This document shows positions 5,415 to 46,908 of a DNA stretch of 64,000 bases, one piece after another. The translations under genes were made by a program, and so were the position numbers. The notes under the pieces are model-generated. The model worked only from the letters and a program-made list of their open reading frames with translations, was not told the DNA's origin and did no database searches. The stretch comes from Microgenomates group bacterium (GTDB lineage Bacteria > Patescibacteriota > Microgenomatia > UBA1400 > MFAQ01). Every line of letters starts with the position of its first letter. Positions within the stretch are counted from its first letter, which is position 1. The DNA lies in NCBI GenBank assembly GCA_049303575.1, contig JBAQNH010000002.1, positions 316,541 to 380,540 on the forward strand, written 5' to 3'.

Positions 5415-6842
5415 ATGGCTGATACGCACGTAAGAACCAGAATTGCTCCCTCCCCAACAGGAGTGCCCCACATCGGCAATACCAGAACTGCCCTCTTTGA
5501 TTATTTACTCGCCAAAAAATATGGCGGCGAGTTTATTTTACGTATCGAAGACACCGACCAAAAGCGTCTGGTTCCTGGTGCTGTTGACAAAATTTATCAG
5601 ATTTTTGATTTCCTAGGTTTAAAAAGAGATGAAGATCCAGTTGTTGGTGGTCCATACGGACCCTATGTCCAAACTGAGCGCCTTGAGATATATCAAAAAT
5701 ACGCTTTAGAACTTGTAAACATGGGAGCCGCTTACTACTGTTTTTGTTCCGAAGAAAGACTCGAAGAACTTCACAAAAATAATCCTTTTGCCAAATATGA
5801 TCGTCACTGTCGCAATCTATCTCCGGAAGAAGTAAAAGCCAAATTAGACTCCGGTGCCCCTCATGTCATCAGGGTCAAACTTCCCGAAACCGGTTTCACT
5901 ACCTGGCATGACTTGGTTCAGGGAAAGCTTAGCTTACCCAACACCGAATGCGACGACAAAGTCTTGATGAAGACAAATGGTATTCCCACATATCATCTTG
6001 CCGTTGTTGTCGATGACTATTTGATGAAAATTAGCCACGTCATTCGAGGAGTTGAGTGGATGATGTCTACTCCTGTTCACCTTTTTCTTTTTGAATCCTT
6101 TGGTTGGGAGCCAACCGCTTTTCTTCATGTTCCCTTGCTTCTCGGTCCCGACAAAAGCAAACTATCCAAACGCCATGGTGCCAAATCAGTCCTCGAGTAC
6201 GCCGCCGACGGTTATCTTCCTGAAGCCATCAACAACTTTCTTTTTTACTTAGGTTTTTCCTACAAAGACAACTCTGAGTTACTCACTCTTGATCAAATGG
6301 CCGAAGTTTTTGATGAAAAAAGAATTCAAAGACAAAACGCTATTTTCGACATCCAAAAATTGAACTACCTCAATAGTCAATGGATCAAAAAACTTGACTC
6401 GGAAGATCTCTTTAATAGACTAAAGGCTTTTATACCCCAAGAATGGCAAGCTGAAAAAGCCAAAGTTATCTCCATTATTGATATTGCCAAAGAGAGAATG
6501 TTTACTCTCAAGGACTTCGCTTCTTCAGCCGAATATTTTTTCTTTACCCCAGAAGTCGACAAACAGCTAGTTCTCGAACAATCAACTCATACCGAAGAGG
6601 AAACAAAAAAATGGTTCGCGATTGCTATTTCTCTAATCGAAAATACCAAGGAATTTACTTCCGAAAATCTCCACGAAGAGTTTATGTCTGCCCAAAAAGA
6701 CTCCGGCTTCTCACCTCGGGAAGCTTTTATGTCTCTTCGTGTCGCCATTTCTGGACGTACTACCACCCCACCCCTCTTTGATTGTTTTGTAATCTTAGGG
6801 AAAGAAGAATCCCTCAAAAGGTTAAACTCCGTTTTTGCCTAA
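5415..6842 (+). CDS. gltX: Glutamyl-tRNA synthetase
   Basis: It has class I HIGH (PSPTGVPHIGNTRTALF) and KMSKS (KLSKRHGA) motifs, and a GluRS-type catalytic core. Confidence 0.85.
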   Translation: MADTHVRTRIAPSPTGVPHIGNTRTALFDYLLAKKYGGEFILRIEDTDQKRLVPGAVDKIYQIFDFLGLKRDEDPVVGGPYGPYVQTERLEIYQKYALELVNMGAAYYCFCSEERLEELHKNNPFAKYDRHCRNLSPEEVKAKLDSGAPHVIRVKLPETGFTTWHDLVQGKLSLPNTECDDKVLMKTNGIPTYHLAVVVDDYLMKISHVIRGVEWMMSTPVHLFLFESFGWEPTAFLHVPLLLGPDKSKLSKRHGAKSVLEYAADGYLPEAINNFLFYLGFSYKDNSELLTLDQMAEVFDEKRIQRQNAIFDIQKLNYLNSQWIKKLDSEDLFNRLKAFIPQEWQAEKAKVISIIDIAKERMFTLKDFASSAEYFFFTPEVDKQLVLEQSTHTEEETKKWFAIAISLIENTKEFTSENLHEEFMSAQKDSGFSPREAFMSLRVAISGRTTTPPLFDCFVILGKEESLKRLNSVFA

Positions 6843-6845
6843 AAT

Positions 6846-7715
6846 ATGCCGGAAAACAATCTACAAAATTCCATCGCCAAACTCGAAAAGAGATCAGCCT
6901 CTTTTCGAAATAAAATTCTAAGAAATCCAGCCGCCAAGAAATTTTTTGCCAAATCTACCTTGCTGGCTTATGATCTCCGTCAGAAATCCAGCCGCATACT
7001 CGCCGGTGCTGGATTGGTTGGTAGTCTTCTGGCTATGCCCATGCCCCAAACACCTTCTTTCCCAACAGAGATTTCTGAACCGGTAAAATCAATTCTTTCC
7101 AGTAAACAAAAAGTTCTCGGCAATCTTCAGGAAATCATTCCCCACCAACCGGCAAAAATTACCGGAGATCAAGCTTTAAAAGTCGAAAAACTTATTTCTG
7201 AAAATACCAACATCCCCGTCAAAGTTGAATTGGAGGGTCAATCTTTAAATCACACTATTGGTTACACCGGTTTTGAACAACACCTCAAACGCTATCCCGG
7301 GGATGCTCTTTCCGAACACGACGAAATCCAAGAAGCCGGTATGGCACCAGGCTTGGGCGCTTTCGGTTATTTTGCCAAAGACTCTCGTGATTTCTCCACA
7401 AAAATCTATCTCCAAGAAAAGTACTACTGTGTCGTCCAAACTTTATATCTTGAAAATTGGAACAAGGACTATCGCCAGCTCAAGGATTGGTATGCATTCC
7501 GAAAAATGCTCGTCGTTAATCCCGTCAATGGTAATGCCGTTGTTTGTGTCATAGGCGACGCTGGTCCGGCAGAGTGGACCGGTAAACAGTTTGGTGCTTC
7601 TCCGGAAACAATGGAATACTTGGATCTCAATAAAGGTCCACGCAAAGGTCTCATTCTTATGTTATTTGTCGACGATCCCGAAAATAAAATTCCTTTAGGA
7701 CCCGTTAATTATTAA
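6846..7715 (+). CDS. Hypothetical protein with RlpA/3D-like double-psi beta-barrel C-terminal domain (possible cell-wall associated)
   Basis: The C-terminal MLVVNPVNGNAVVCVIGDAGPAEWTGKQFGASPETMEYLDL resembles the RlpA DPBB signature (VVVRINDRGPF...IDLS). Assignment is tentative. Confidence 0.4.
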   Translation: MPENNLQNSIAKLEKRSASFRNKILRNPAAKKFFAKSTLLAYDLRQKSSRILAGAGLVGSLLAMPMPQTPSFPTEISEPVKSILSSKQKVLGNLQEIIPHQPAKITGDQALKVEKLISENTNIPVKVELEGQSLNHTIGYTGFEQHLKRYPGDALSEHDEIQEAGMAPGLGAFGYFAKDSRDFSTKIYLQEKYYCVVQTLYLENWNKDYRQLKDWYAFRKMLVVNPVNGNAVVCVIGDAGPAEWTGKQFGASPETMEYLDLNKGPRKGLILMLFVDDPENKIPLGPVNY

Positions 7716-24935: not shown

Positions 24936-27278
24936 ATGCCTATTCATCAAACATTAATACCCTTTATAGGACTAAAAGAAGGAGTTATCTTTCCCGAAAC
25001 GGAAGCCGTCCTAACTTTTGGAAAGCCGGCCTCAATCGCTGGCATTAATCATGCTTTTGGTAATAACGAGGAAGTTTGTTTTGTTTCCCAAAAAGATGCC
25101 AAAGCCGCCGCCACTAGTTTAAGTGATTACTACCTCGTCGGAACTGTTTGTCGTATTGTCAAAACCCTTCCTGTAAATGAGGAGCTTCACGCGATTGTCA
25201 AAGGCTTATTCCGCGTCAAAGTAGAAAGTATTGAAGAAAAAGACGGCTTAGTCTGGGCTCTTGTTTCCGAGTATCCCGAAGACACTTCCATCACGGCCGA
25301 AATCTCCGCACTCTCCAATCGTGCCATCGCTCTTATCAAGCGAGCTTCAGAACTGGGAAAAGCCAATATCGAACCGGGAGTCTTGACTAAGATTATCGGC
25401 AGTTCGGATCCCTTACTGGTTTCCTTCCAAATTTCATCCGTTCTGGAGGTAAAAAACGAAGAGAAACAAAAACTTCTTGAAAACAACTCTTTGGAAAAAA
25501 GACTTTCCTTCATCACCAATCATCTCACCGAAGAAATAAAGATTCTCGAGTTGGAAAAGAAGATTGAAAACAAAACTCAAAAACGTTTTGACGACAGTAT
25601 GAAAGAAGCAGTTCTTCGTGAAAGAATGCGTGCCATTCAAAAAGAGCTTGGAGAGGGCGGCGAAGAAGAAGAAATTGTAGAGCTCAAAAATAAACTAAAA
25701 AAGGCCAATCTTCCCAAAGAAATTTATGCCAAAGTAAACAAAGAGCTCGAACGCCTCAAAAAATTATCGATTCACAACCCCGAAACATCATATTTAAGAA
25801 CCTGGATTGAAACTGTTTTGGAGCTTCCCTGGGGAGAGTACACCAAGAGCAGTTACTCACTCTCCAAGGCGGAAAAAATTTTGGACCAAGACCACTATGG
25901 TTTGGAGAAAGTCAAAGAAAGAATCTTGGAATATATTGCTGTTTTAAAGCTAAAAAATGATCAGGTAAAAGCTACCAAAAATCGTGCCGTCAACCCCCCC
26001 ACAATTCTCTGTTTTGTTGGACCTCCGGGTGTTGGAAAAACTTCTGTTGGCCGCTCCATTGCCAAAGCCATCGGTCGTAAATTTGTCAAAATGTCCCTAG
26101 GTGGCCTAAAAGACGAAGCCGAAATTCGAGGACACAGACGTACCTATGTTGGAGCTATGCCCGGTAGAATAATTCAATCAATAAAAGATAGCGGTGTTAG
26201 TAATCCGGTTTTTATGCTGGATGAAATCGACAAAATCGGTGCTGATTTCCGCGGTGATCCCAGCTCGGCTCTTCTCGAAGCCCTTGATCCGGAACAAAAT
26301 TTTGCTTTCCAAGATTACTATCTTGATATTCCTTTTGATCTATCTCAAGTTCTTTTTATCACCACTGCGAACGTCTTGGACACTATTCCTGCCGCCCTTC
26401 GGGACCGTCTTGAAGTGATTGAGTTTTCCGGTTATACCGAAGAAGAAAAATACTTTATTGCCAAAAAATATCTGGTTAAGAAGCAATCCGAAGCCAACGC
26501 CATCAACCAAAAAGATATTGTTCTTTCCTCTCCTATGCTCAAGTTCCTCGTTCGTCACTACACTCGTGAAGCCGGTGTCAGAAATCTTGAACGTCAAATC
26601 GCTTCCATTATGCGCAAAATCGCCAAAGCTAAAGCCAGCGGTAAAGAACTTCCCATCGTCATTTCTAAAGAAAAAATCAACAAATTCCTAGGACCGATTA
26701 TTTATAGTCACACTCTCGCGGAAGACAATGATCAAGTTGGTTTGGTCACTGGACTTGCCTATACAAAAGTTGGTGGAGATATCCTTTTTATCGAAGTAGC
26801 TACTATGCCCGGTCAAGGAAAGATTACTCTCACTGGTCAGCTTGGCGATGTCATGAAAGAATCTGCCAAAGCCGCCTATTCTTATGTCCGCTCTCACAGC
26901 AAAGAACTCGGTATCAAAGACGAAAAAATTTCCAAGACGGATATCCACATTCATGTACCGGAAGGTGCTGTTCCCAAAGATGGACCAAGCGCAGGTCTAG
27001 CCATTACTACCGCCATTATTTCTGCTTTCACCGGCAAACCCGTTCCTAAAAATCTTGCTATGACCGGCGAAGTCACTCTTCGTGGTCGTGCTTTAGAAAT
27101 CGGCGGAGTACGGGAAAAAGTTATTGCCGCTCATAGAGCCGGTATCAATCATGTTATTCTTCCCAAAGACAACGAAAAAAATATTGCCGATCTTCCCGAA
27201 AAAGTTCGCCACGATCTAAAATTCAACTTCGTGAAGAGTATGGACGACGTCGTTAAGATTGTTTTCTCCGGAAAATAA
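24936..27278 (+). CDS. lon: ATP-dependent Lon protease
   Basis: It has a LON N-domain and an AAA+ domain (GPPGVGKTS). The protease Ser-Lys dyad is in PKDGPSAGLAITTAIISA. Confidence 0.85.
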   Translation: MPIHQTLIPFIGLKEGVIFPETEAVLTFGKPASIAGINHAFGNNEEVCFVSQKDAKAAATSLSDYYLVGTVCRIVKTLPVNEELHAIVKGLFRVKVESIEEKDGLVWALVSEYPEDTSITAEISALSNRAIALIKRASELGKANIEPGVLTKIIGSSDPLLVSFQISSVLEVKNEEKQKLLENNSLEKRLSFITNHLTEEIKILELEKKIENKTQKRFDDSMKEAVLRERMRAIQKELGEGGEEEEIVELKNKLKKANLPKEIYAKVNKELERLKKLSIHNPETSYLRTWIETVLELPWGEYTKSSYSLSKAEKILDQDHYGLEKVKERILEYIAVLKLKNDQVKATKNRAVNPPTILCFVGPPGVGKTSVGRSIAKAIGRKFVKMSLGGLKDEAEIRGHRRTYVGAMPGRIIQSIKDSGVSNPVFMLDEIDKIGADFRGDPSSALLEALDPEQNFAFQDYYLDIPFDLSQVLFITTANVLDTIPAALRDRLEVIEFSGYTEEEKYFIAKKYLVKKQSEANAINQKDIVLSSPMLKFLVRHYTREAGVRNLERQIASIMRKIAKAKASGKELPIVISKEKINKFLGPIIYSHTLAEDNDQVGLVTGLAYTKVGGDILFIEVATMPGQGKITLTGQLGDVMKESAKAAYSYVRSHSKELGIKDEKISKTDIHIHVPEGAVPKDGPSAGLAITTAIISAFTGKPVPKNLAMTGEVTLRGRALEIGGVREKVIAAHRAGINHVILPKDNEKNIADLPEKVRHDLKFNFVKSMDDVVKIVFSGK

Positions 27279-37658: not shown

Positions 37659-37837
37659 TTTTGCGTTTTCTTTTCATTTTCGTACGACTGCGGTAGTGCA
37701 TTCGAGCCGATGTGGAGTTTATCCGCCTTTGGCGGAGCAGGCAGTTGGCGAACCGCTAGGCCATTAGACCGAGCGGTGAGCCATTAAGTTAGTAATTCTG
37801 TTGGAAATAGGTCCGAACTTCGTTATAACACCTCACA
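37659..37837 (-). repeat. Structured repeat copy C (modules W+Y'+X', inverted orientation, ends at precise X terminus ...ttataacacctcaca)
   Basis: The reverse complement of 37738-37837 matches 38421-38520, the start of copy B. The 5' part (ttttgcgttttcttttc...tgcggtagtgc...ttcgagccgatg) matches 44930-44985. Confidence 0.7.
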
Positions 37838-37982: not shown

Positions 37983-38402
37983 TTAAACCTGATTAGTTCT
38001 GGTTAAGAAATCCAATAATCCTGCACTAACAAACTCTCTACACTCCTCACTATCAGTATTCTCATGAGTTTCTAACCACTTATCAAGCAATAGCCCCATT
38101 TCAGTAAACTGTCCGTCTACATCAATAACTTTAACTCTTGGATTTTCTGGAATATCAACCTCAACCCAAGTTTTTTTGTCAGTCTTGAAATCATAACTCC
38201 AATGTCCCCAGTTTCCTTGTTCGTTCATCCTGCCAAGTCCAATCTCTAATCCATTTGGGTAAACCAAAGAATATGCTTCATCAACAAACATAGATGGATC
38301 ATGTCCGGCAAGATTCAAATCGTATGTATTGTTGAATACGACTTTGATAACTTCAAACTCTCTCTTCTCCTTTACTGGTTCATTTTCACTCATAATAAAC
38401 AC
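37983..38402 (-). CDS. Hypothetical protein (139 aa) bracketed by inverted X termini
   Basis: Clean ORF with no motif. It lies within the 583-bp segment between X' (ending 37837) and X (starting 38421). Confidence 0.35.
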   Translation of the reverse strand: MFIMSENEPVKEKREFEVIKVVFNNTYDLNLAGHDPSMFVDEAYSLVYPNGLEIGLGRMNEQGNWGHWSYDFKTDKKTWVEVDIPENPRVKVIDVDGQFTEMGLLLDKWLETHENTDSEECREFVSAGLLDFLTRTNQV

Positions 38403-38420
38403 ATTGTATCACTAGTAATT

Positions 38421-38791
38421 GTGAGGTGTTATAACGAAGTTCGGACCTATTTCCGACAGAATTACTAACTTAATGGCTCACCGCTCGGCCTAACGGCCTC
38501 GCGGTTCGCCAACTGCCTGTCGGCAGTATTACGGTCGCGCGATACGAATTCTGTATCCCGCCTGCGGGCGGGATGATTTGCCTTCGGCAAAGTGCCAACT
38601 TCGTTGTCACATCTTTATGTTCGTCACAAGATCGCCTTGAGCGATTGTGACGAAGCTCTCTCAATTATGGCTCGTTTACCAATCTCGCCATATAAATATC
38701 AGCTAGTTAGGAGAGAATTTTACTATCTGATATTTTAGGATTGAGATAGCATTTGGCCTGTCGGCCAAAGTGCCTGCTTCGCAGGCACAAT
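38421..38791 (+). repeat. Structured repeat copy B (modules X+Y+Z, full long form, + orientation)
   Basis: It starts with tgtgaggtgttataacgaag. It contains the same UGCG and UUCG tetraloop hairpins as copy A, plus an extra ggcc-uaac-ggcc hairpin and a 24-nt insertion. Confidence 0.75.
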
Positions 38792-39457: not shown

Positions 39458-40129
39458 CTACCTTATTTTTTCTTGCACTTGTTTACTCTTATCCTCAACC
39501 AAATATTTACCTAAATTACATTCTTGACACCGAGTTGCTAAATTGTCTACTGAATTACCCCCACCATCTTCTGGTCTGACAATGTGATCCATTGATAATA
39601 GTTTACCGTCTTTTGATCCTAAACCACAATCTACACACTTAAAGTTATCTCTTTTGAGCACCATATACCTAGTTGCTGGTCCAATCGATTTTCTAAATTC
39701 TCCCGCTTTAATTGCTTTTTTTAAATGGCTTAGGTCAATTCTTCCTCTTGATAGAGCTAATCTATGGGCTACTTGAACTGTTCTTAGTATACCTAACAGA
39801 CCAACGTACCTCTGGATACTTCGTACCGTGACTATTAGATCAAGCTTATCTTTAATCTCACTACAAGAATATCCATCTTGGTATAAATTTCTAATTTCGT
39901 TTTCATAAATTGATAATTTACTACTCCTAATTCTATTCTCTCTTGTCTTTACTGATGCTTTAGTACTTAACCCTTCATTCCTTTTCAGCTTCATTACCAG
40001 GGTTTTTTCTTTTAACCAATTCATAATTTTATGACTATATCTTAATGGATATTGTTTCCTTATTTCATACATGGGAATGCCCTCGCTGTATAGCTTCAAT
40101 ATCTCAAATTTATTTTCAGACCATTTCAT
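39458..40129 (-). CDS. HNH endonuclease with N-terminal HTH-like region
   Basis: The HNH motif is CVDCG...DHIVRPEDGGGNSVDNLATRCQECNLGK. Confidence 0.6.
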   Translation of the reverse strand: MKWSENKFEILKLYSEGIPMYEIRKQYPLRYSHKIMNWLKEKTLVMKLKRNEGLSTKASVKTRENRIRSSKLSIYENEIRNLYQDGYSCSEIKDKLDLIVTVRSIQRYVGLLGILRTVQVAHRLALSRGRIDLSHLKKAIKAGEFRKSIGPATRYMVLKRDNFKCVDCGLGSKDGKLLSMDHIVRPEDGGGNSVDNLATRCQECNLGKYLVEDKSKQVQEKIR

Positions 40130-42572: not shown

Positions 42573-44915
42573 GTGAAACTGAAGAAAATCAAAAAAATCA
42601 AAGTTTACAAATCATTCCAAGATTTTTCTTGGCAACCTTTTTTAAATAATGAAACATTTCATGATGAAGTAAATATTATTTATGGCGAAAACGGAAGTGG
42701 CAAAAGCTCAATAGCCAATCTGTTAAAAAATGTTTCGGAAAATAAAGATTTTGGTAAATACAAACCAATCGAAGCGTGTTTAGTCTTTGATGACGGTGAA
42801 AAAAAATATCCAGTAAACAACGACTGGGATAATAAAATCCCAAAAGGTTCTATTTTGTTTTTTGATCATGAATTTGTTGACAAAAATGTTCATATGGGGA
42901 GTAGGCGAGATACAACACAAAACGGACAAGAACAGGAATCAGGCAAAATGATTATTGAGTTTGATAGCAACGCTATAAATTTGCGCGGTGTACGAGACGT
43001 TGCGAAAAAAGCGAAAGAGGAACAAGACCAGAAGATTAAAGATTTCAATTCAGCAAATAAGGATTACTTGTTCAATATTTTGACTGATGATGAAAAACTA
43101 TATTATCAAAACTATAAGGATAATACCGAAGATGAAATCAAAAAAGTAAAACAAGACTTGGAAAAAGAGAAAAGGGAAGCAGGAAAAAATTTTGAAATTG
43201 ATCAAGGCCTACAGAAGAAAGTCACGAGCATTCAGAGCGGAATAAAAAGTTTGCCGACAGAAGAAGTTGAAATCTCTCTTTCAGATATTGAAACCTATCA
43301 GAAAATTTTTGATTTTGATCTAAAGGAGCGGGCATCAATAAAGGCCGAACAAGATTTGATTGATAAAGTCAAAACGCACAAAATATTTTTTGAAACTGGT
43401 TTTGAAATCAGAAAAACACATCAAAACCGATGCCCTTTTTGTCAATCCGAAAACGAAGAAGCGGGGATTAAGAAAATTGTTGATTTGTTCAAGCAAATTT
43501 ATGACACGACATATAAAACACAGGCACAACAATTTGAAAAAGATAAACAAACCCTACTTGGTGAAATTTCACAAATTACGAAATCAGTCTCCGATTTTGA
43601 TTTGAATAATATTTTTCTAGAACTTAAAAAATTGGATCAAAACTATAAGATACCATATATCTACTCTGTTGAAGACGAAGAAATATACAAAAAGCCAGCT
43701 GTGAAAGAGATAAAAGATTTGAGCGATAAAATATCAAAACTTACAAAGCCAGACAAAGAGAACATCAAAGATCTTTATACAAAAGTAAAAACTGAATTTA
43801 AGGTAATTGAAGCGTTTTTCAAGGCAATTGGTGATTTCGTAGAACAAAGGAACAATCTAATTGTTAAATTCAAATCTGACAATACTGACGAAAAGCTTCA
43901 AGCACGAATTGCCACAAGCAGTAAAAGAATTGCTGAAGTTGAAAAAGTGTTGGTTTTTATCAATGGGAACAAGATAAAAGAGCAACAAAAGAAAGTGCAG
44001 AAAGAAAAGGAACTGAAAGTGATGCAAGATGTTTTAGCTACGTTAAAAATAGAATACGAAACGGCATTGAAAAATTATGAGGAACATTGCTCAACAAAAG
44101 CCTTTTCAAATCTATTGTCCAAAATTCAAGATTATTTCAAGAATTTCAATTTCAGTTTTAAGCTTAAATTGAAAACAGACCCAACAGGTAACAAAACCGA
44201 ATTTCCTTTTGCTTTCAAAGTTTTGGATTTTGAGGGCAACGAACGGGATTTTAATGAGGGGCTTTCTGAAGGGGAGATTCAGGTTTTGTCCCTTTGCTTT
44301 TTCTTTGCTTTTCTTGATATACAAAAAGAAAAAGATCAAAAAATACTTATTTTTGATGACCCAATCACGAGCTTGGATAGTAGCAATTTGAGCTATCTTG
44401 TTGATTTAATTTCAGAAGAACAAAATAACTTTTCACAAATATTTGTTTTTACCCACCACAGAACCTTTTTCAAATTTTTAAGAAAACGATTCGGACAACA
44501 AAAAATTGGGTGCAAGGAATTTAATGTCATTAGGAACAGAAAGGAGTTAGGCGGAAGCTTTTTATGTAAAAGTCATCAAACAGACTTTATGCCGTTGCTT
44601 AGAAATTTTGAAAGTGATTTGAGAAGTTGGTCTCCTTTAGATATAGAATTAAAAATAGTTGAGTACGGCCAGTATTTAAGATATGAGGTTGAAAAGTTCA
44701 TTAAGAACGAGCTGCTTCATATAAATGAAACAAAATTTGAAGATATTGTAGACGGAGTAAAAAACAACCAAAACATTAATGTTATAGATTTAGAAAAAAT
44801 TAAAGAAATATACTTATTTTGCAATTGGACAACTTCGCATGTCGATGTTGGTGATGATCATGGTCTTGATCAACTGAAAACTAAAATAATCGACTTTGTA
44901 TCCATAATTAATTAA
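42573..44915 (+). CDS. RloC/AAA_13-like Rad50-type ABC ATPase with coiled-coil CxxC zinc hook and C-terminal extra domain (candidate anticodon-nuclease/defense protein)
   Basis: It has a PrrC/RloC-like Walker A (IIYGENGSGKSSIANLL) and a long coiled coil containing HQNRCPFCQSE (CxxC hook). The ABC signature LSEGEIQ, Walker B ILIFDDP, D-loop SLD and H-loop FTHH follow. About 180 aa remain C-terminal of these motifs. Confidence 0.5.
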   Translation: MKLKKIKKIKVYKSFQDFSWQPFLNNETFHDEVNIIYGENGSGKSSIANLLKNVSENKDFGKYKPIEACLVFDDGEKKYPVNNDWDNKIPKGSILFFDHEFVDKNVHMGSRRDTTQNGQEQESGKMIIEFDSNAINLRGVRDVAKKAKEEQDQKIKDFNSANKDYLFNILTDDEKLYYQNYKDNTEDEIKKVKQDLEKEKREAGKNFEIDQGLQKKVTSIQSGIKSLPTEEVEISLSDIETYQKIFDFDLKERASIKAEQDLIDKVKTHKIFFETGFEIRKTHQNRCPFCQSENEEAGIKKIVDLFKQIYDTTYKTQAQQFEKDKQTLLGEISQITKSVSDFDLNNIFLELKKLDQNYKIPYIYSVEDEEIYKKPAVKEIKDLSDKISKLTKPDKENIKDLYTKVKTEFKVIEAFFKAIGDFVEQRNNLIVKFKSDNTDEKLQARIATSSKRIAEVEKVLVFINGNKIKEQQKKVQKEKELKVMQDVLATLKIEYETALKNYEEHCSTKAFSNLLSKIQDYFKNFNFSFKLKLKTDPTGNKTEFPFAFKVLDFEGNERDFNEGLSEGEIQVLSLCFFFAFLDIQKEKDQKILIFDDPITSLDSSNLSYLVDLISEEQNNFSQIFVFTHHRTFFKFLRKRFGQQKIGCKEFNVIRNRKELGGSFLCKSHQTDFMPLLRNFESDLRSWSPLDIELKIVEYGQYLRYEVEKFIKNELLHINETKFEDIVDGVKNNQNINVIDLEKIKEIYLFCNWTTSHVDVGDDHGLDQLKTKIIDFVSIIN

Positions 44916-44929
44916 CCCATAATAATTAA

Positions 44930-45210
44930 TTTTGCGTTTTCTTTTCTTTTTGCACTACTGCGGTAGTGCCGTTCGAGCCGATGTTTCGGCAGTTGTTGGC
45001 GAACCGCGAGGCCGACAGGCCGAGCGGTGAGCCAATTAAGTTAGCAATTCTGTTGGAAATAGGTCCGAACTTCGTTATAACACCTCACACTCAGAGAGTT
45101 TTCGCTCTCGTCAGGGTACATCGCCCGTGCGCCCGCCCTCGCACGGAGCGATGTGAAGGGCTTTTAAGTTGTATTACTATCAAAAAGAAAAAAGAAAAGA
45201 AAACGCAAAA
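44930..45210 (-). repeat. Structured repeat copy D (W+Y'+X' inverted) fused to an 80-bp inverted copy of the tRNA-Glu 3' trailer, bounded by 17-bp inverted repeats
   Basis: Bases 44930-45089 match copy C and are the reverse complement of the copy B start. Bases 45086-45165 are the reverse complement of 46691-46770. ttttgcgttttcttttc at 44930-44946 is the reverse complement of 45194-45210. Confidence 0.7.
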
Positions 45211-45276
45211 CGGGGGACAATTCCAGTTTGTCTTGGCTGTACTCTTTCGGGAAATATATGGTTAAATGAATGTAAG

Positions 45277-46908
45277 GTGAAATACATTTTGTATTGTCGA
45301 AAGAGTACCGATGAAAAAGACAAACAGGTCTTGTCCATTGAAGCTCAGATTGCTGAGCTTACCGAGTTCGCCATAAGGGAAAGGCTTGAGATAGTCGCCA
45401 CTTTCTCCGAATCAAAAACAGCCAAGACTCCAGGCAGACCAATCTTCAAGGAGGTGCTAAAGAAAATCGAAAGTGACGAGGCCGACGCCATTCTTTCCTG
45501 GCACCCCGATAGGTTGGCCAGAAACAGCATTGATGGCGGTTACCTCATCTATCTTCTCGACACAGGGAAGCTCCTTGACCTCAAGTTTCCTTCCTTTTGG
45601 TTTGATAACACTCCGCAAGGAAAGTTCATGCTCAACCTCGCTTTCGGTCAATCCAAATACTATGTCGATAATCTCTCGGAGAATGTTAAGCGTGGTCTTC
45701 GCCAAAAGATTAGGAATGGCGTCTGGCCTTCCCAAGCCCCTTATGGCTACTTGAATAATAAAATTACTCGGGGTATTGAAATCGATCCGGAAAAAAGCAA
45801 AGTCGTGAAAAAAGCCTTCGAAATCTTTGCAAAAGAAAAAGTTTCCTTCTCCGATGTTTCACTTCTTCTTGCCAAAGGCGGTATTCATAAAAGAAGTGGC
45901 AAACCAGTTGGTATCAGTCAAGTCCATAAAATGCTCACCAATCAGTTTTACATCGGCATCATGTCATATAACGGGGAATTTTTCGAAGGCAAACACGACC
46001 AATTCATCACTCGCCAACTCTTTAATAAGGTAAAGAGAAGACTAGAAGAAAAAGGCAACTCCAATTTCAAGTTTCGTGATTATGCTTTTTCCGGTCTCAT
46101 GCGTTGTGGGGAGTGTGGCGCGACTATTACGGCCGAAACTCACACCAAGCATTACAAAAACGGCACTCACCAAAAATTCGTGTATTACCGCTGTACCAAA
46201 AAGCTTAGACCTTGTTCACAACCATATTTACCAGAAGAAAAACTCAAAGATCAACTCCGAGGATTCATCTCCCTCGCCACACTCCCCAAACGCTGGGGGA
46301 ACGACTGGCTCAAGTGGTTGGAAAAAGACAAAGTCACGGGGCGGCAATCTGCAGATTCATTTTTTGAAAGATACAAACTAGATATACAAACCATTGATGG
46401 CAAACTCAACCTCTTACTTGATAGCTATCTTGATGGCACAATCAACTCTCAAACATACAAAGGCAAAAAGAACCAGCTCTTTACCGAGAAACAAAATCTA
46501 GAAGACAAGATAGCCAAAACAAAAGCAAAGGGAAGCAGTTGGCTCGAACCCATGACAGAATTCGTCTTTTGCGCTATACGAGCGCAAAAAATCGCGCGAC
46601 CGAATACTGCTAGCGAAGATCTGCGGATCTTCGCCAAAAACATCGGCTCGAACTTCTTTTTGAAAGATAAACAACTTACATGGGAGATGAAAAAGCCCTT
46701 CGCATCGCTCCGTGCGAGGGCGGGCGCACGGGCGATGTACCCTGACGAGAGCGAAAACTCTCTGAGTGTGATCCCGGCGGGAGTCGAACCCGCGATCTTT
46801 TGGATGAGAACCAAATGTCCTAGACCACTAGACGACGGGACCATGTCTGAACCTGTATATTGTACCAAATTAGTGCGCCAATTTGACTTGATAGGTTCAA
46901 AAGTGTAA
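45277..46908 (+). CDS. Large serine recombinase (resolvase-domain + recombinase-domain + zinc ribbon + coiled coil); 3' end reads antisense through tRNA-Glu
   Basis: The catalytic N-terminus is KYILYCRKSTDEKDKQVLSIEAQ (the YxRVSTxxQ-type motif with the Ser nucleophile). A recombinase domain and a zinc ribbon (CGECGATITAETH...YYRCTK) follow. The start is uncertain, either GTG at 45277 or TTG at 45289 after an AGGTGA. The ORF has no stop until 46908. Confidence 0.7.
   Translation: MKYILYCRKSTDEKDKQVLSIEAQIAELTEFAIRERLEIVATFSESKTAKTPGRPIFKEVLKKIESDEADAILSWHPDRLARNSIDGGYLIYLLDTGKLLDLKFPSFWFDNTPQGKFMLNLAFGQSKYYVDNLSENVKRGLRQKIRNGVWPSQAPYGYLNNKITRGIEIDPEKSKVVKKAFEIFAKEKVSFSDVSLLLAKGGIHKRSGKPVGISQVHKMLTNQFYIGIMSYNGEFFEGKHDQFITRQLFNKVKRRLEEKGNSNFKFRDYAFSGLMRCGECGATITAETHTKHYKNGTHQKFVYYRCTKKLRPCSQPYLPEEKLKDQLRGFISLATLPKRWGNDWLKWLEKDKVTGRQSADSFFERYKLDIQTIDGKLNLLLDSYLDGTINSQTYKGKKNQLFTEKQNLEDKIAKTKAKGSSWLEPMTEFVFCAIRAQKIARPNTASEDLRIFAKNIGSNFFLKDKQLTWEMKKPFASLRARAGARAMYPDESENSLSVIPAGVEPAIFWMRTKCPRPLDDGTMSEPVYCTKLVRQFDLIGSKV
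46691..46768 (-). repeat. Native 3' trailer of tRNA-Glu (copy E), inverted partner of 45086-45165
   Basis: It contains the hairpins gagag-uuuucg-cucuc and ccgugcg-cccgcccu-cgcacgg. It is 68 nt identical to the upstream inverted copy. Confidence 0.7.
46769..46842 (-). tRNA. tRNA-Glu (anticodon CUC)
   Basis: Manual cloverleaf: acceptor GGUCCCG/CGGGAUC with one G-U pair. D-arm is GUCU-AGUGGUCUA-GGAC. Anticodon stem is UUUGG/CCAAA with loop UUCUCAU. T-arm is GCGGG-UUCGACU-CCCGC. Length is 74 nt, no CCA is encoded, and it resembles E. coli tRNA-Glu. Confidence 0.8.

Follow-up and report, generated by a model that had tools for sequence, protein, structure and literature searches.

RloC proteins are anticodon nucleases defined by the pattern Arg-X3-Glu-X36-52-His, in which a Ser often stands before the His, with R692/E696/H737 and the hook cysteine C291 in the Geobacillus protein (PMC2610378), and rloC is often the single cargo of mobile elements (PMC3458546). 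PrrC is about 400 amino acids (aa) long, has no coiled-coil or zinc-hook insert, carries a Walker A Arg, a PrrC box and a LARP motif, and is obligately linked to type I restriction-modification. Its Walker B residues D215/D216 are Asp-Asp, its residues H295, R320, E324, R349, N352 and H356 are essential and reported to be conserved in RloC (PMC3025547), and the Walker A Arg is the criterion that separates PrrC from RloC (PMC3458546). Both have been reported as HEPN proteins found in restriction context (PMC3710099). Here we describe a gene of this kind in a stretch of 64,000 nucleotides (nt), hereafter the window, which covers positions 316,541-380,540 of the forward strand of contig JBAQNH010000002.1 in the assembly GCA_049303575.1 of a Microgenomates group bacterium. 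The encoded protein is a divergent member of the RloC family, largely restricted to the Candidate Phyla Radiation (CPR), in a family that is already covered by COG4694, PF13166 and PDC-S06, a PADLOC candidate for single-gene defence. With a probability of roughly 0.65, we take the gene to encode a stand-alone RloC-type abortive-infection protein.

The ATPase and hook parts of the protein carry the following features.

42573..44915, + strand: RloC-type gene, 780 aa, GTG start, stop included (AAA_13, PDC-S06, hhalign to the RloC-type family)
42684..42707, + strand: Walker A GENGSGKS, residues 38-45 (motif search and homolog alignment)
42927..43418, + strand: ascending coiled-coil arm, residues ~119-282 (AlphaFold2 secondary structure; Foldseek top matches Rad50, SMC, LmuB)
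43431..43442, + strand: CPFC motif of the predicted zinc hook, residues 287-290, in a loop (283-292) at the coiled-coil apex (motif search, AlphaFold2)
43449..44138, + strand: descending coiled-coil arm, residues ~293-522 (AlphaFold2)
44262..44276, + strand: ATP-binding cassette (ABC) signature LSEGE, residues 564-568 (motif search; identical LSEGE in the E. coli APEC O1 RloC-type protein)
44340..44378, + strand: Walker B KILIFDD and D-loop SLD, together KILIFDDPITSLD, residues 590-602 (motif search, alignment)
44451..44459, + strand: H-loop THH, residues 627-629 (H628 and H629 invariant in the alignment)

The N-terminus, MKLKxIKKIK, agrees with all homologs in the alignment, and the Walker A, LSEGE, KILIFDDPITSLD and THH motifs are all invariant or nearly so among them. 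The motif search finds the N-terminal Walker A, LSEGE, Walker B, D-loop and the H-loop near residue 600 exactly where an earlier note on this DNA had placed them. That note had described the Walker A as being of PrrC/RloC flavour; the sequence, GENGSGKSS, has no Arg after GKS and is RloC-like, not PrrC-like. Its coiled coil of about 400 aa with a central CPFC hook was right, since the AlphaFold2 helices (119-282 and 293-522) lie on either side of the CPFC loop. CPFC is present in all 117 full-length homologs, which indicates a conserved feature and not a chance CxxC, and in 98 of the 99 members of the E. coli APEC O1 RloC-type family. The Walker B of the window protein ends in Asp-Asp, not Asp-Glu. 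A scan for promoters and terminators around the gene gave counts at chance level. The second 780-aa open reading frame (ORF) of the window (24936-27278) was considered as a paralog and rejected, since it encodes a Lon protease.

Profile searches agree on the family. The best Pfam match is PF13166 (AAA_13), proposed in the earlier note as a check, which covers residues 31-656 on profile positions 16-598 of 713 with an E-value of 8.9e-36 and 124.3 bits (gathering cutoff 36), leaving the C-terminal 115 positions of the profile unmatched. The PADLOC search, suggested in the same place, gives the PDC-S06 model PDLC04887 as its best match (2.4e-32), and 12 further PDC-S06 models match as well. NCBIfam yields no model at its cutoff for this protein, and a tblastn search against plasmids returns only weak matches in the ATPase region, labelled 'AAA family ATPase'. 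Seven homologs are annotated by the Joint Genome Institute (JGI) as 'wobble nucleotide-excising tRNase'. The full-length AlphaFold2 model, built on 32 homologs with a mean predicted local distance difference test (pLDDT) score of 78, forms an ABC head from residues 1-130 and 529-652, with helices 119-282 running up and 293-522 running down in an antiparallel arrangement of ~400 aa. When this model is compared with the PDB by Foldseek, Rad50 comes first (3.4e-8), followed by cohesin, condensin and SMC heads, LmuB and JetC; the Rad50 ATPase is also ranked first when the family profile is compared with the PDB sequences, where searches with the single sequence and with profiles give matches limited to Rad50, SMC and AriA heads. 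No PrrC or RloC structure was found by the PDB sequence searches or by the literature search.

These Rad50 and SMC matches to the head and coiled coil, together with the Rad50-like predicted hook, are what would be expected of a host ATPase for DNA repair or chromosome maintenance of the Rad50/SbcC/RecN type. The profile ranking points elsewhere, with SMC_N at only 44 bits, far under AAA_13, and RecF at 32 bits against a cutoff of 172. The window protein shares with Rad50/SbcC the head, the antiparallel coiled coil and the CxxC hook, and Rad50 is its top structural match, but it has a far shorter coiled coil, a 'DD' and not a 'DE' Walker B, and an extra conserved C-terminal domain, a putative effector. 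No Mre11/SbcD-type partner lies nearby, the neighbours being small ORFs, an HNH gene and a recombinase, and the gene has an AT-rich, foreign composition beside that recombinase, while its homologs occur in restriction-modification operons. Occurrence is also patchy, with 23 loci among 185,579 species genomes for the search patterns used. We therefore reject an SbcC/RecN repair ATPase on context and profile ranking, and consider a repair or maintenance role highly improbable. The finding that the earlier note had named as fatal to its proposal, best matches to SbcC/RecN-type repair ATPases and no nuclease-like C-terminal domain, is not what we observe: AAA_13 ranks best and an extra C-domain with the triad pattern is present.

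The PADLOC scan of the window protein returns no match to the PrrC model and no RloC-named model, and we therefore took a protein from E. coli APEC O1 as comparator. Klaiman et al. (2012) work with the 'E. coli APECO1 RloC' (PMC3458546), and a survey of HEPN proteins names APECO1_4465 among the ABC-HEPN proteins, with prophages as its setting (PMC3710099); we assume that both are the 738-aa 'AAA family ATPase' WP_000423308.1 (APECO1_RS04465; NC_008563.1, 925932-928148, or 6932-9148 of our locus L035). Its gene lies within a P2-like prophage, between the replication endonuclease and portal genes, and the protein carries, in order, CPFCQ, LSEGE, IDDP, MRNILE and YRYINRGSHSD. It matches the PDC-S06 model PDLC04886 over its full length (1.3e-254), which implies that PDC-S06 contains the RloC type, and the PrrC model matches it via the nuclease domain. 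Three alignments were used: of the close family of the window protein (A1), of a wider set reaching down to 21% identity (A6), and of 25 sequences of the APEC O1-type family (A7). An hhalign comparison of A1 with A7 gives a probability of 99.7% and an E-value of 2.1e-25 over 369 columns, with CPFCQ placed on CPFCQ. The aligned span begins just before the hook, follows the descending arm and the ATPase C-lobe, and ends at the beta-hairpin after the H-loop, so that the helical C-domain is excluded. The two proteins thus share an identical CPFCQ hook and LSEGE, both match PDC-S06 models and both are cargo of mobile elements, whereas pairwise BLASTP finds only 26% identity over 87 residues. They also differ in the C-domain, where MRNILE...YRYINRGSHSD of the APEC O1 protein matches the PADLOC PrrC model and LRYEVE...FCNWTTSHVD of the window protein does not, and in setting, the APEC O1 gene being in a P2 prophage hotspot and not in a restriction-modification or recombinase island. 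With the comparator assumed as above, the RloC-type identity claimed in the earlier note is borne out by AAA_13, PDC-S06, the triad pattern and the hhalign score.

The C-terminal part is where the proposed nuclease would reside.

44490..44912, + strand: C-terminal domain, residues 640-780, putative anticodon-nuclease module (AlphaFold2: beta-hairpin and four-helix bundle)
44679..44693, + strand: R703-Y-E-V-E707, Arg-X3-Glu half of the putative catalytic triad (invariant in A1 and A6)
44820..44840, + strand: C750-N751-W-T-T-S755-H756, Asn and Ser-His half of the putative active site (alignment conservation)

The domain predicted earlier exists, although not at the 180 aa then given: about 150 aa follow the H-loop, made up of a beta-hairpin (~648-665) and a helical domain of ~110 aa (673-779). 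R703, E707, K711 and C750 do not vary in A1 or in the wider A6. N751 and H756 do not vary in A1 either, and their conservation in A6 is 90% or more. The stretch R703-x3-E707-x48-S755-H756 is the sole occurrence of the RloC triad pattern in the protein, and the motif is kept in 116 of the 117 full-length homologs. Counterparts of the PrrC residues R320, E324 and H356 are present in the window family, as is one of N352 shifted by one or two positions. RNase activity of the C-domain is a reasonable inference from this conserved motif and the all-helical predicted fold.

Several results weigh against a nuclease of the known kind. Shuffling the last 141 residues produces the loose triad motif in 11% of cases (0.7% for the Ser-His version), so the motif alone is weak and the evidence lies in its conservation. 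For two PrrC residues, H295 and R349, the family alignment offers no counterpart; R349 is the one that supplies the Arg in the Rx4-6H motif of HEPN domains. Scans of the C-terminal 158 aa against Pfam and PADLOC at E-values up to 10 give no useful match, with only YjcQ listed (0.065), and a Foldseek search with the C-domain model against the PDB and BFVD (viral predicted structures) gives nothing at E <= 0.001 and none below 0.6. Against the C-domain of the canonical RloC type, hhalign finds no significant similarity (E = 0.037-0.16, with a probability of 1.4% at 0.037) and pairs IYLFCNWTTSHVD with FYRYINRGSHSD only, that is, the His stretch, canonical 'YRYINRGSH'.

The missing Arg is seen directly in the sequence: the seven residues preceding H756 are F-C-N-W-T-T-S, so that the Rx4-6H pattern is absent from a fold that is helical, N751 stands at -5 from the His and not at -4, and the alignment has neither an Arg at -7 nor a conserved upstream His. 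Among the 25 APEC O1-type family members, too, 5 lack the -7 Arg, which is therefore not universal. The structural comparison that the earlier note had recommended produced a helical model (pLDDT 74 for the C-domain), without a significant fold match to PrrC, RloC or HEPN domains; the best Foldseek TM-scores belong to the HEPN proteins 1wwp, 7bxo_F and 2hsb, all with E > 1. Given these E-values and the absent Rx4-6H Arg, we do not class the C-domain as a demonstrated HEPN domain. The founding RloC paper likewise relied on manual motif alignment for this domain (PMC2610378). The earlier wording, 'candidate anticodon nuclease or other defense gene', was pitched at the right strength, as the nuclease identity rests on a motif and a helical fold. 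In an exhaustive profile search of 1.84 billion representatives, the C-domain is recovered in only 63 clusters. Matches of full length (~745-845 aa) have it at their C-terminus, and the remainder are shorter sequences or fragments. A word-indexed search with the broad C-domain profile A6 finds fragments of the same family only and no bridge to canonical RloC. By sequence, the C-domain is a distinct small subfamily, mostly from CPR genomes.

A protein with an RloC-like sensor ATPase could, on these grounds, carry a different effector at its C-terminus, with another RNase specificity or directed at DNA, or a docking or regulatory module that would couple the ATPase to neighbouring restriction enzymes and, for example, control or license restriction and not kill translation. 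The separate small sequence family, the lack of any significant link to PrrC, RloC or HEPN domains and the lack of the Rx4-6H Arg would suit such a role. The invariant or near-invariant polar set R/E/K...N...H on a helical bundle, in contrast, resembles the site of a metal-independent RNase and has the RloC spacing, including the Ser before the His. The restriction contexts described below also bear on this alternative, which we regard as unlikely, though it deserves more weight than the repair reading.

Compared feature by feature, the protein lies closest to RloC, as known from Geobacillus kaustophilus and Acinetobacter baylyi (Davidov & Kaufmann 2008; Klaiman et al. 2012, 2013). Its 780 aa fall within the 658-897 aa reported for RloC, and the two are alike in the split ABC head, the LSEGE-type signature, the 'DD' Walker B and the absence of an Arg after GK[ST]. 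Both have a coiled-coil insert with a central CxxC (C287/C290 in the window protein, where the zinc hook is predicted from the motif, and C291 in Geobacillus) and the C-terminal Arg-X3-Glu-X36-52-Ser-His pattern (R703/E707/H756 against R692/E696/H737 in Geobacillus kaustophilus), and both RloC and the window clade occur either in restriction-modification loci or as the only cargo that a mobile element carries. Unlike RloC, the window protein has a C-domain without homology to the canonical one that is detectable at profile level. Its Asn and His are further apart by one or two residues, it lacks both the Arg at -7 from the His and a conserved His upstream, and its clade is largely confined to CPR/Patescibacteria. 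With PrrC (E. coli EcoprrI) it shares a 'DD' Walker B ABC NTPase fused in cis to a putative C-terminal RNase with an Arg-X3-Glu...His triad, and its relatives share the embedding in restriction-modification operons, including one hsdS-gene-hsdR order like hsdS-prrC-hsdR. It does not belong to PrrC itself, with 780 aa, a coiled-coil insert, no Walker A Arg, no match to the PrrC model and no adjacent restriction-modification genes.

If the analogy to the Geobacillus and Acinetobacter RloC proteins holds, hook-mediated contacts (dimers) and the ATPase would keep the C-terminal RNase silent in the resting state. DNA ends, from phage DNA, restriction products or double-strand breaks, would bind the head and lead to ATP hydrolysis, and the released C-domain would then cleave tRNAs within the anticodon loop, by a transesterification that needs no metal and relies on Arg, Glu and His. 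Translation and phage growth would stop, and the infection would be aborted. In restriction-modification operons the RloC-type gene would probably be a second line of defence for cases in which restriction fails. The copy in the window may have lost its restriction partner or never had one, and would travel in a small island that is linked to a serine recombinase and situated at tRNA-Glu.

Homologs at 45-80% identity are found mostly in metagenome-assembled genomes (MAGs) of Paceibacterota, Saccharibacteria, WWE3, Buchananbacteria and Gracilibacteria, with a few in bins labelled as other phyla. The latter (L008, L009, L017, L022, L024 and L027, at 47-79% identity) are binned as Gammaproteobacteria, Saprospiraceae, Thermodesulfobacteriota, Bacteroidota or Oscillospiraceae, which reflects either that the cassette was transferred horizontally in recent times or that CPR contigs were mis-binned. 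Restriction genes surround the RloC-type gene, usually the last gene of the operon, in 12 of about 22 examined loci, and the loci with restriction or methyltransferase genes group as follows.

Type I: L018 (hsdS-gene-hsdR) and L015 (HsdS and HsdR)
Type I or ISP-like: L007 and L010 (N6_Mtase and HsdR-like protein, assigned in L010 from matching gene lengths alone)
N6_Mtase fused to a specificity domain: L008 and L011
Type II: L030 (HinfI), L016 and L024 (AlwI)
Methyltransferases only: L009 (D12 and N6_N4, gene order as in L030)
Type III-like: L021 (N6_N4_Mtase and ResIII)
Type IV: L003 and L019 (GmrSD-HNH with an EcoRI methylase)

The grouping of L007, L010, L011 and L015 is provisional, since each may be type I or ISP-like. 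RhuM genes flank the RloC-type gene in L004. In a Saccharibacteria MAG (L018, 8718-15222) the order hsdS, RloC-type gene, hsdR mirrors the E. coli hsdS-prrC-hsdR arrangement with a protein that has the RloC-type hook. For the alternative in which the C-domain is a different effector or a docking module, the tight operons in 12 of the ~22 loci, with diverse restriction-modification types and often overlapping start and stop codons, would suit an accessory role. Solitary copies nevertheless exist, in the window and in L005, and the restriction partners vary from type I to type IV, which is hard to reconcile with a specific docking role and fits a partner-independent toxin. About half of the examined loci of the window clade are linked to restriction, a pattern that is PrrC-like and differs from canonical RloC, which is reported as rarely linked.

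The window copy itself is solitary, with no restriction-modification gene adjacent. The G+C content is 0.31-0.32 across the gene, within a block of 0.31-0.34 at ~39-45 kb, and 0.40-0.45 in the flanks; elsewhere the window carries housekeeping genes (Lon, SecA, aminoacyl-tRNA synthetases, a release factor). The earlier note had called the gene AT-rich relative to core genes and island cargo, and both descriptions hold for this AT-rich block, which is bracketed by repeats and lies beside a serine recombinase and a tRNA gene. ORF and domain scans also agree with it that no restriction-modification genes are adjacent and that the HNH gene is 2.4 kb away on the opposite strand.

39458-40129, - strand: HNH gene, 223 aa, 2.4 kb upstream of the RloC-type gene
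45277..46908, + strand: large serine recombinase (Resolvase, Recombinase and Zn_ribbon_recom; Pfam/NCBIfam domains)
46768..46842, - strand: tRNA-Glu(CUC), abutting repeat Y (tRNA/Rfam scan)

The HNH domain is C-terminal in this protein and, within NCBIfam, most similar to the HNH region of IscB/Cas9d (2.4e-13, far below cutoff); the N-terminal half of the protein is repeated and helix-turn-helix-like. The products of five small ORFs between 38908 and 42509 (170, 95, 287, 190 and 155 aa) seem to be secreted or to lie in the membrane; Pfam, PADLOC and NCBIfam give no match for them, and 30-odd related loci contain no homologs. None of these small ORFs, nor the HNH gene, recurs beside any RloC homolog, which indicates that the RloC-type protein is a self-contained module and that the HNH gene is not its partner. 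This bears on a further possibility, that the protein is the ATPase subunit of a multi-gene system such as Lamassu (LmuB), PARIS (AriA) or a MADS-type system, with a separate effector such as the HNH protein of the same island. The PADLOC matches to LmuB (4.8e-20), mad3 and AriA speak for it, but they score less well than PDC-S06 and are limited to the ATPase and the coiled coil. Moreover, the HNH gene is on the opposite strand with four unrelated small ORFs in between, no island ORF has a homolog next to any RloC homolog, and no partner is conserved across the ~22 loci. A two-gene Lamassu/PARIS system with the HNH protein was rejected, as no LmuA/LmuC-type partner is conserved across these loci, and we judge a subunit role of this kind improbable, if a little less so than a repair ATPase.

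The recombinase ORF, within 45169-46908, reads through repeat Y (46691-46771) and then antisense through the whole of tRNA-Glu(CUC), which is likely the insertion landmark of the island. Related recombinases are next to or near an RloC homolog in six other distinct loci, and in L019 the recombinase likewise overlaps a tRNA gene, tRNA-Gln(UUG). The natural targets reported for Acinetobacter RloC are tRNA-Glu and tRNA-Gln (PMC3874168); that the overlapped tRNAs coincide with them is probably a coincidence.

The repeats around the island form two inverted-repeat pairs that abut each other.

38420..38519, - strand: repeat X copy B, left inverted arm of the AT-rich cassette
44930..45089, + strand: repeat u+X copy C, right arm, beginning 15 nt past the RloC stop; repeats copy A (37659-37837) in direct orientation
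45085..45165, + strand: repeat Y', inverted copy of the recombinase 3' end and tRNA-Glu downstream hairpin (81 nt, 99%)

Repeat X (~97 nt) occurs in three copies that are 92-98% identical: A (37738-37837, direct), B (38420-38519, inverted) and C (44995-45089, direct), with ~75 further upstream bases shared by A and C. The AT-rich cassette with the RloC-type gene lies between copies B and C, and copies A and B bracket a 139-aa ORF (37983-38402, - strand) without a Pfam match. Y' (45085-45165) abuts copy C and is 99% complementary to 46691-46771, so that this pair brackets the recombinase gene; the arm at 46691-46771 contains the last codons of the recombinase and lies directly against tRNA-Glu(CUC), at its 3' end. 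A perfect 22-nt inverted repeat, TTTTGCGTTTTCTTTTCTTTTT, at 44930-44951 and 45189-45210 brackets a block of 281 nt (copy C and the left recombinase arm) that looks like a miniature inverted-repeat transposable element (MITE), and the same 22-mer starts copy A at 37659. The inverted-repeat arms contain strong hairpins, and that of repeat u+X copy C is GC-rich (z = -3.4). An Rfam scan finds two tRNAs only, so the repeats belong to no known RNA family.

The same layout with different sequences is seen in L019, where a tRNA-Gln gene is accompanied by a 93-nt inverted repeat of 98% identity (5535-5627 and 7116-7208) around the recombinase, abutting a 189-nt perfect inverted repeat around EcoRI methylase, GmrSD-HNH and RloC. 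As in the window, one arm around the recombinase is the 3' end of that gene and lies against the tRNA 3' end. L007 has a partial version, in which a 389-nt perfect inverted repeat surrounds HsdR, methylase and RloC and an adjacent recombinase is cut by the contig end. L016 and L023, where a recombinase is absent, have degenerate inverted repeats (~78 nt, 75%) on both sides of their cassettes. Several short metagenome contigs with close homologs (L030-L033) break off 28-176 nt past the RloC stop codon, which agrees with a repeat boundary directly downstream of the gene in many genomes. Tentatively, the RloC gene, with its restriction partners where present, might be part of a recombinase-driven invertible or mobile flip cassette at a tRNA gene; we regard this as possible but doubtful. 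The repeats may be inversion sites, element ends or fossils.

These results extend the RloC-type anticodon-nuclease family into CPR/Patescibacteria, with genomes of ~0.7 Mb, and change no major concept; the ten best-ranked of 718 literature matches on Patescibacteria, CPR, Saccharibacteria and RloC make no mention of RloC. That the PADLOC candidate PDC-S06 holds the long-known RloC type matters for the reading of censuses of defence systems. For a family still without a solved structure, the divergent C-domain, which keeps Arg-X3-Glu...Asn...Ser-His without the HEPN-type Arg, offers a natural experiment on the residues that an RloC/PrrC-type RNase needs. The layout of inverted repeats and recombinase is the unusual part of the locus and the only element that could lead somewhere new. 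If the flip-cassette interpretation is true, inversion of either segment would leave the genes intact and change their orientation relative to outside promoters and terminators, and CPR bacteria, with their reduced genomes, would thereby have a phase-variable ON/OFF switch for a tRNase that is potentially suicidal.

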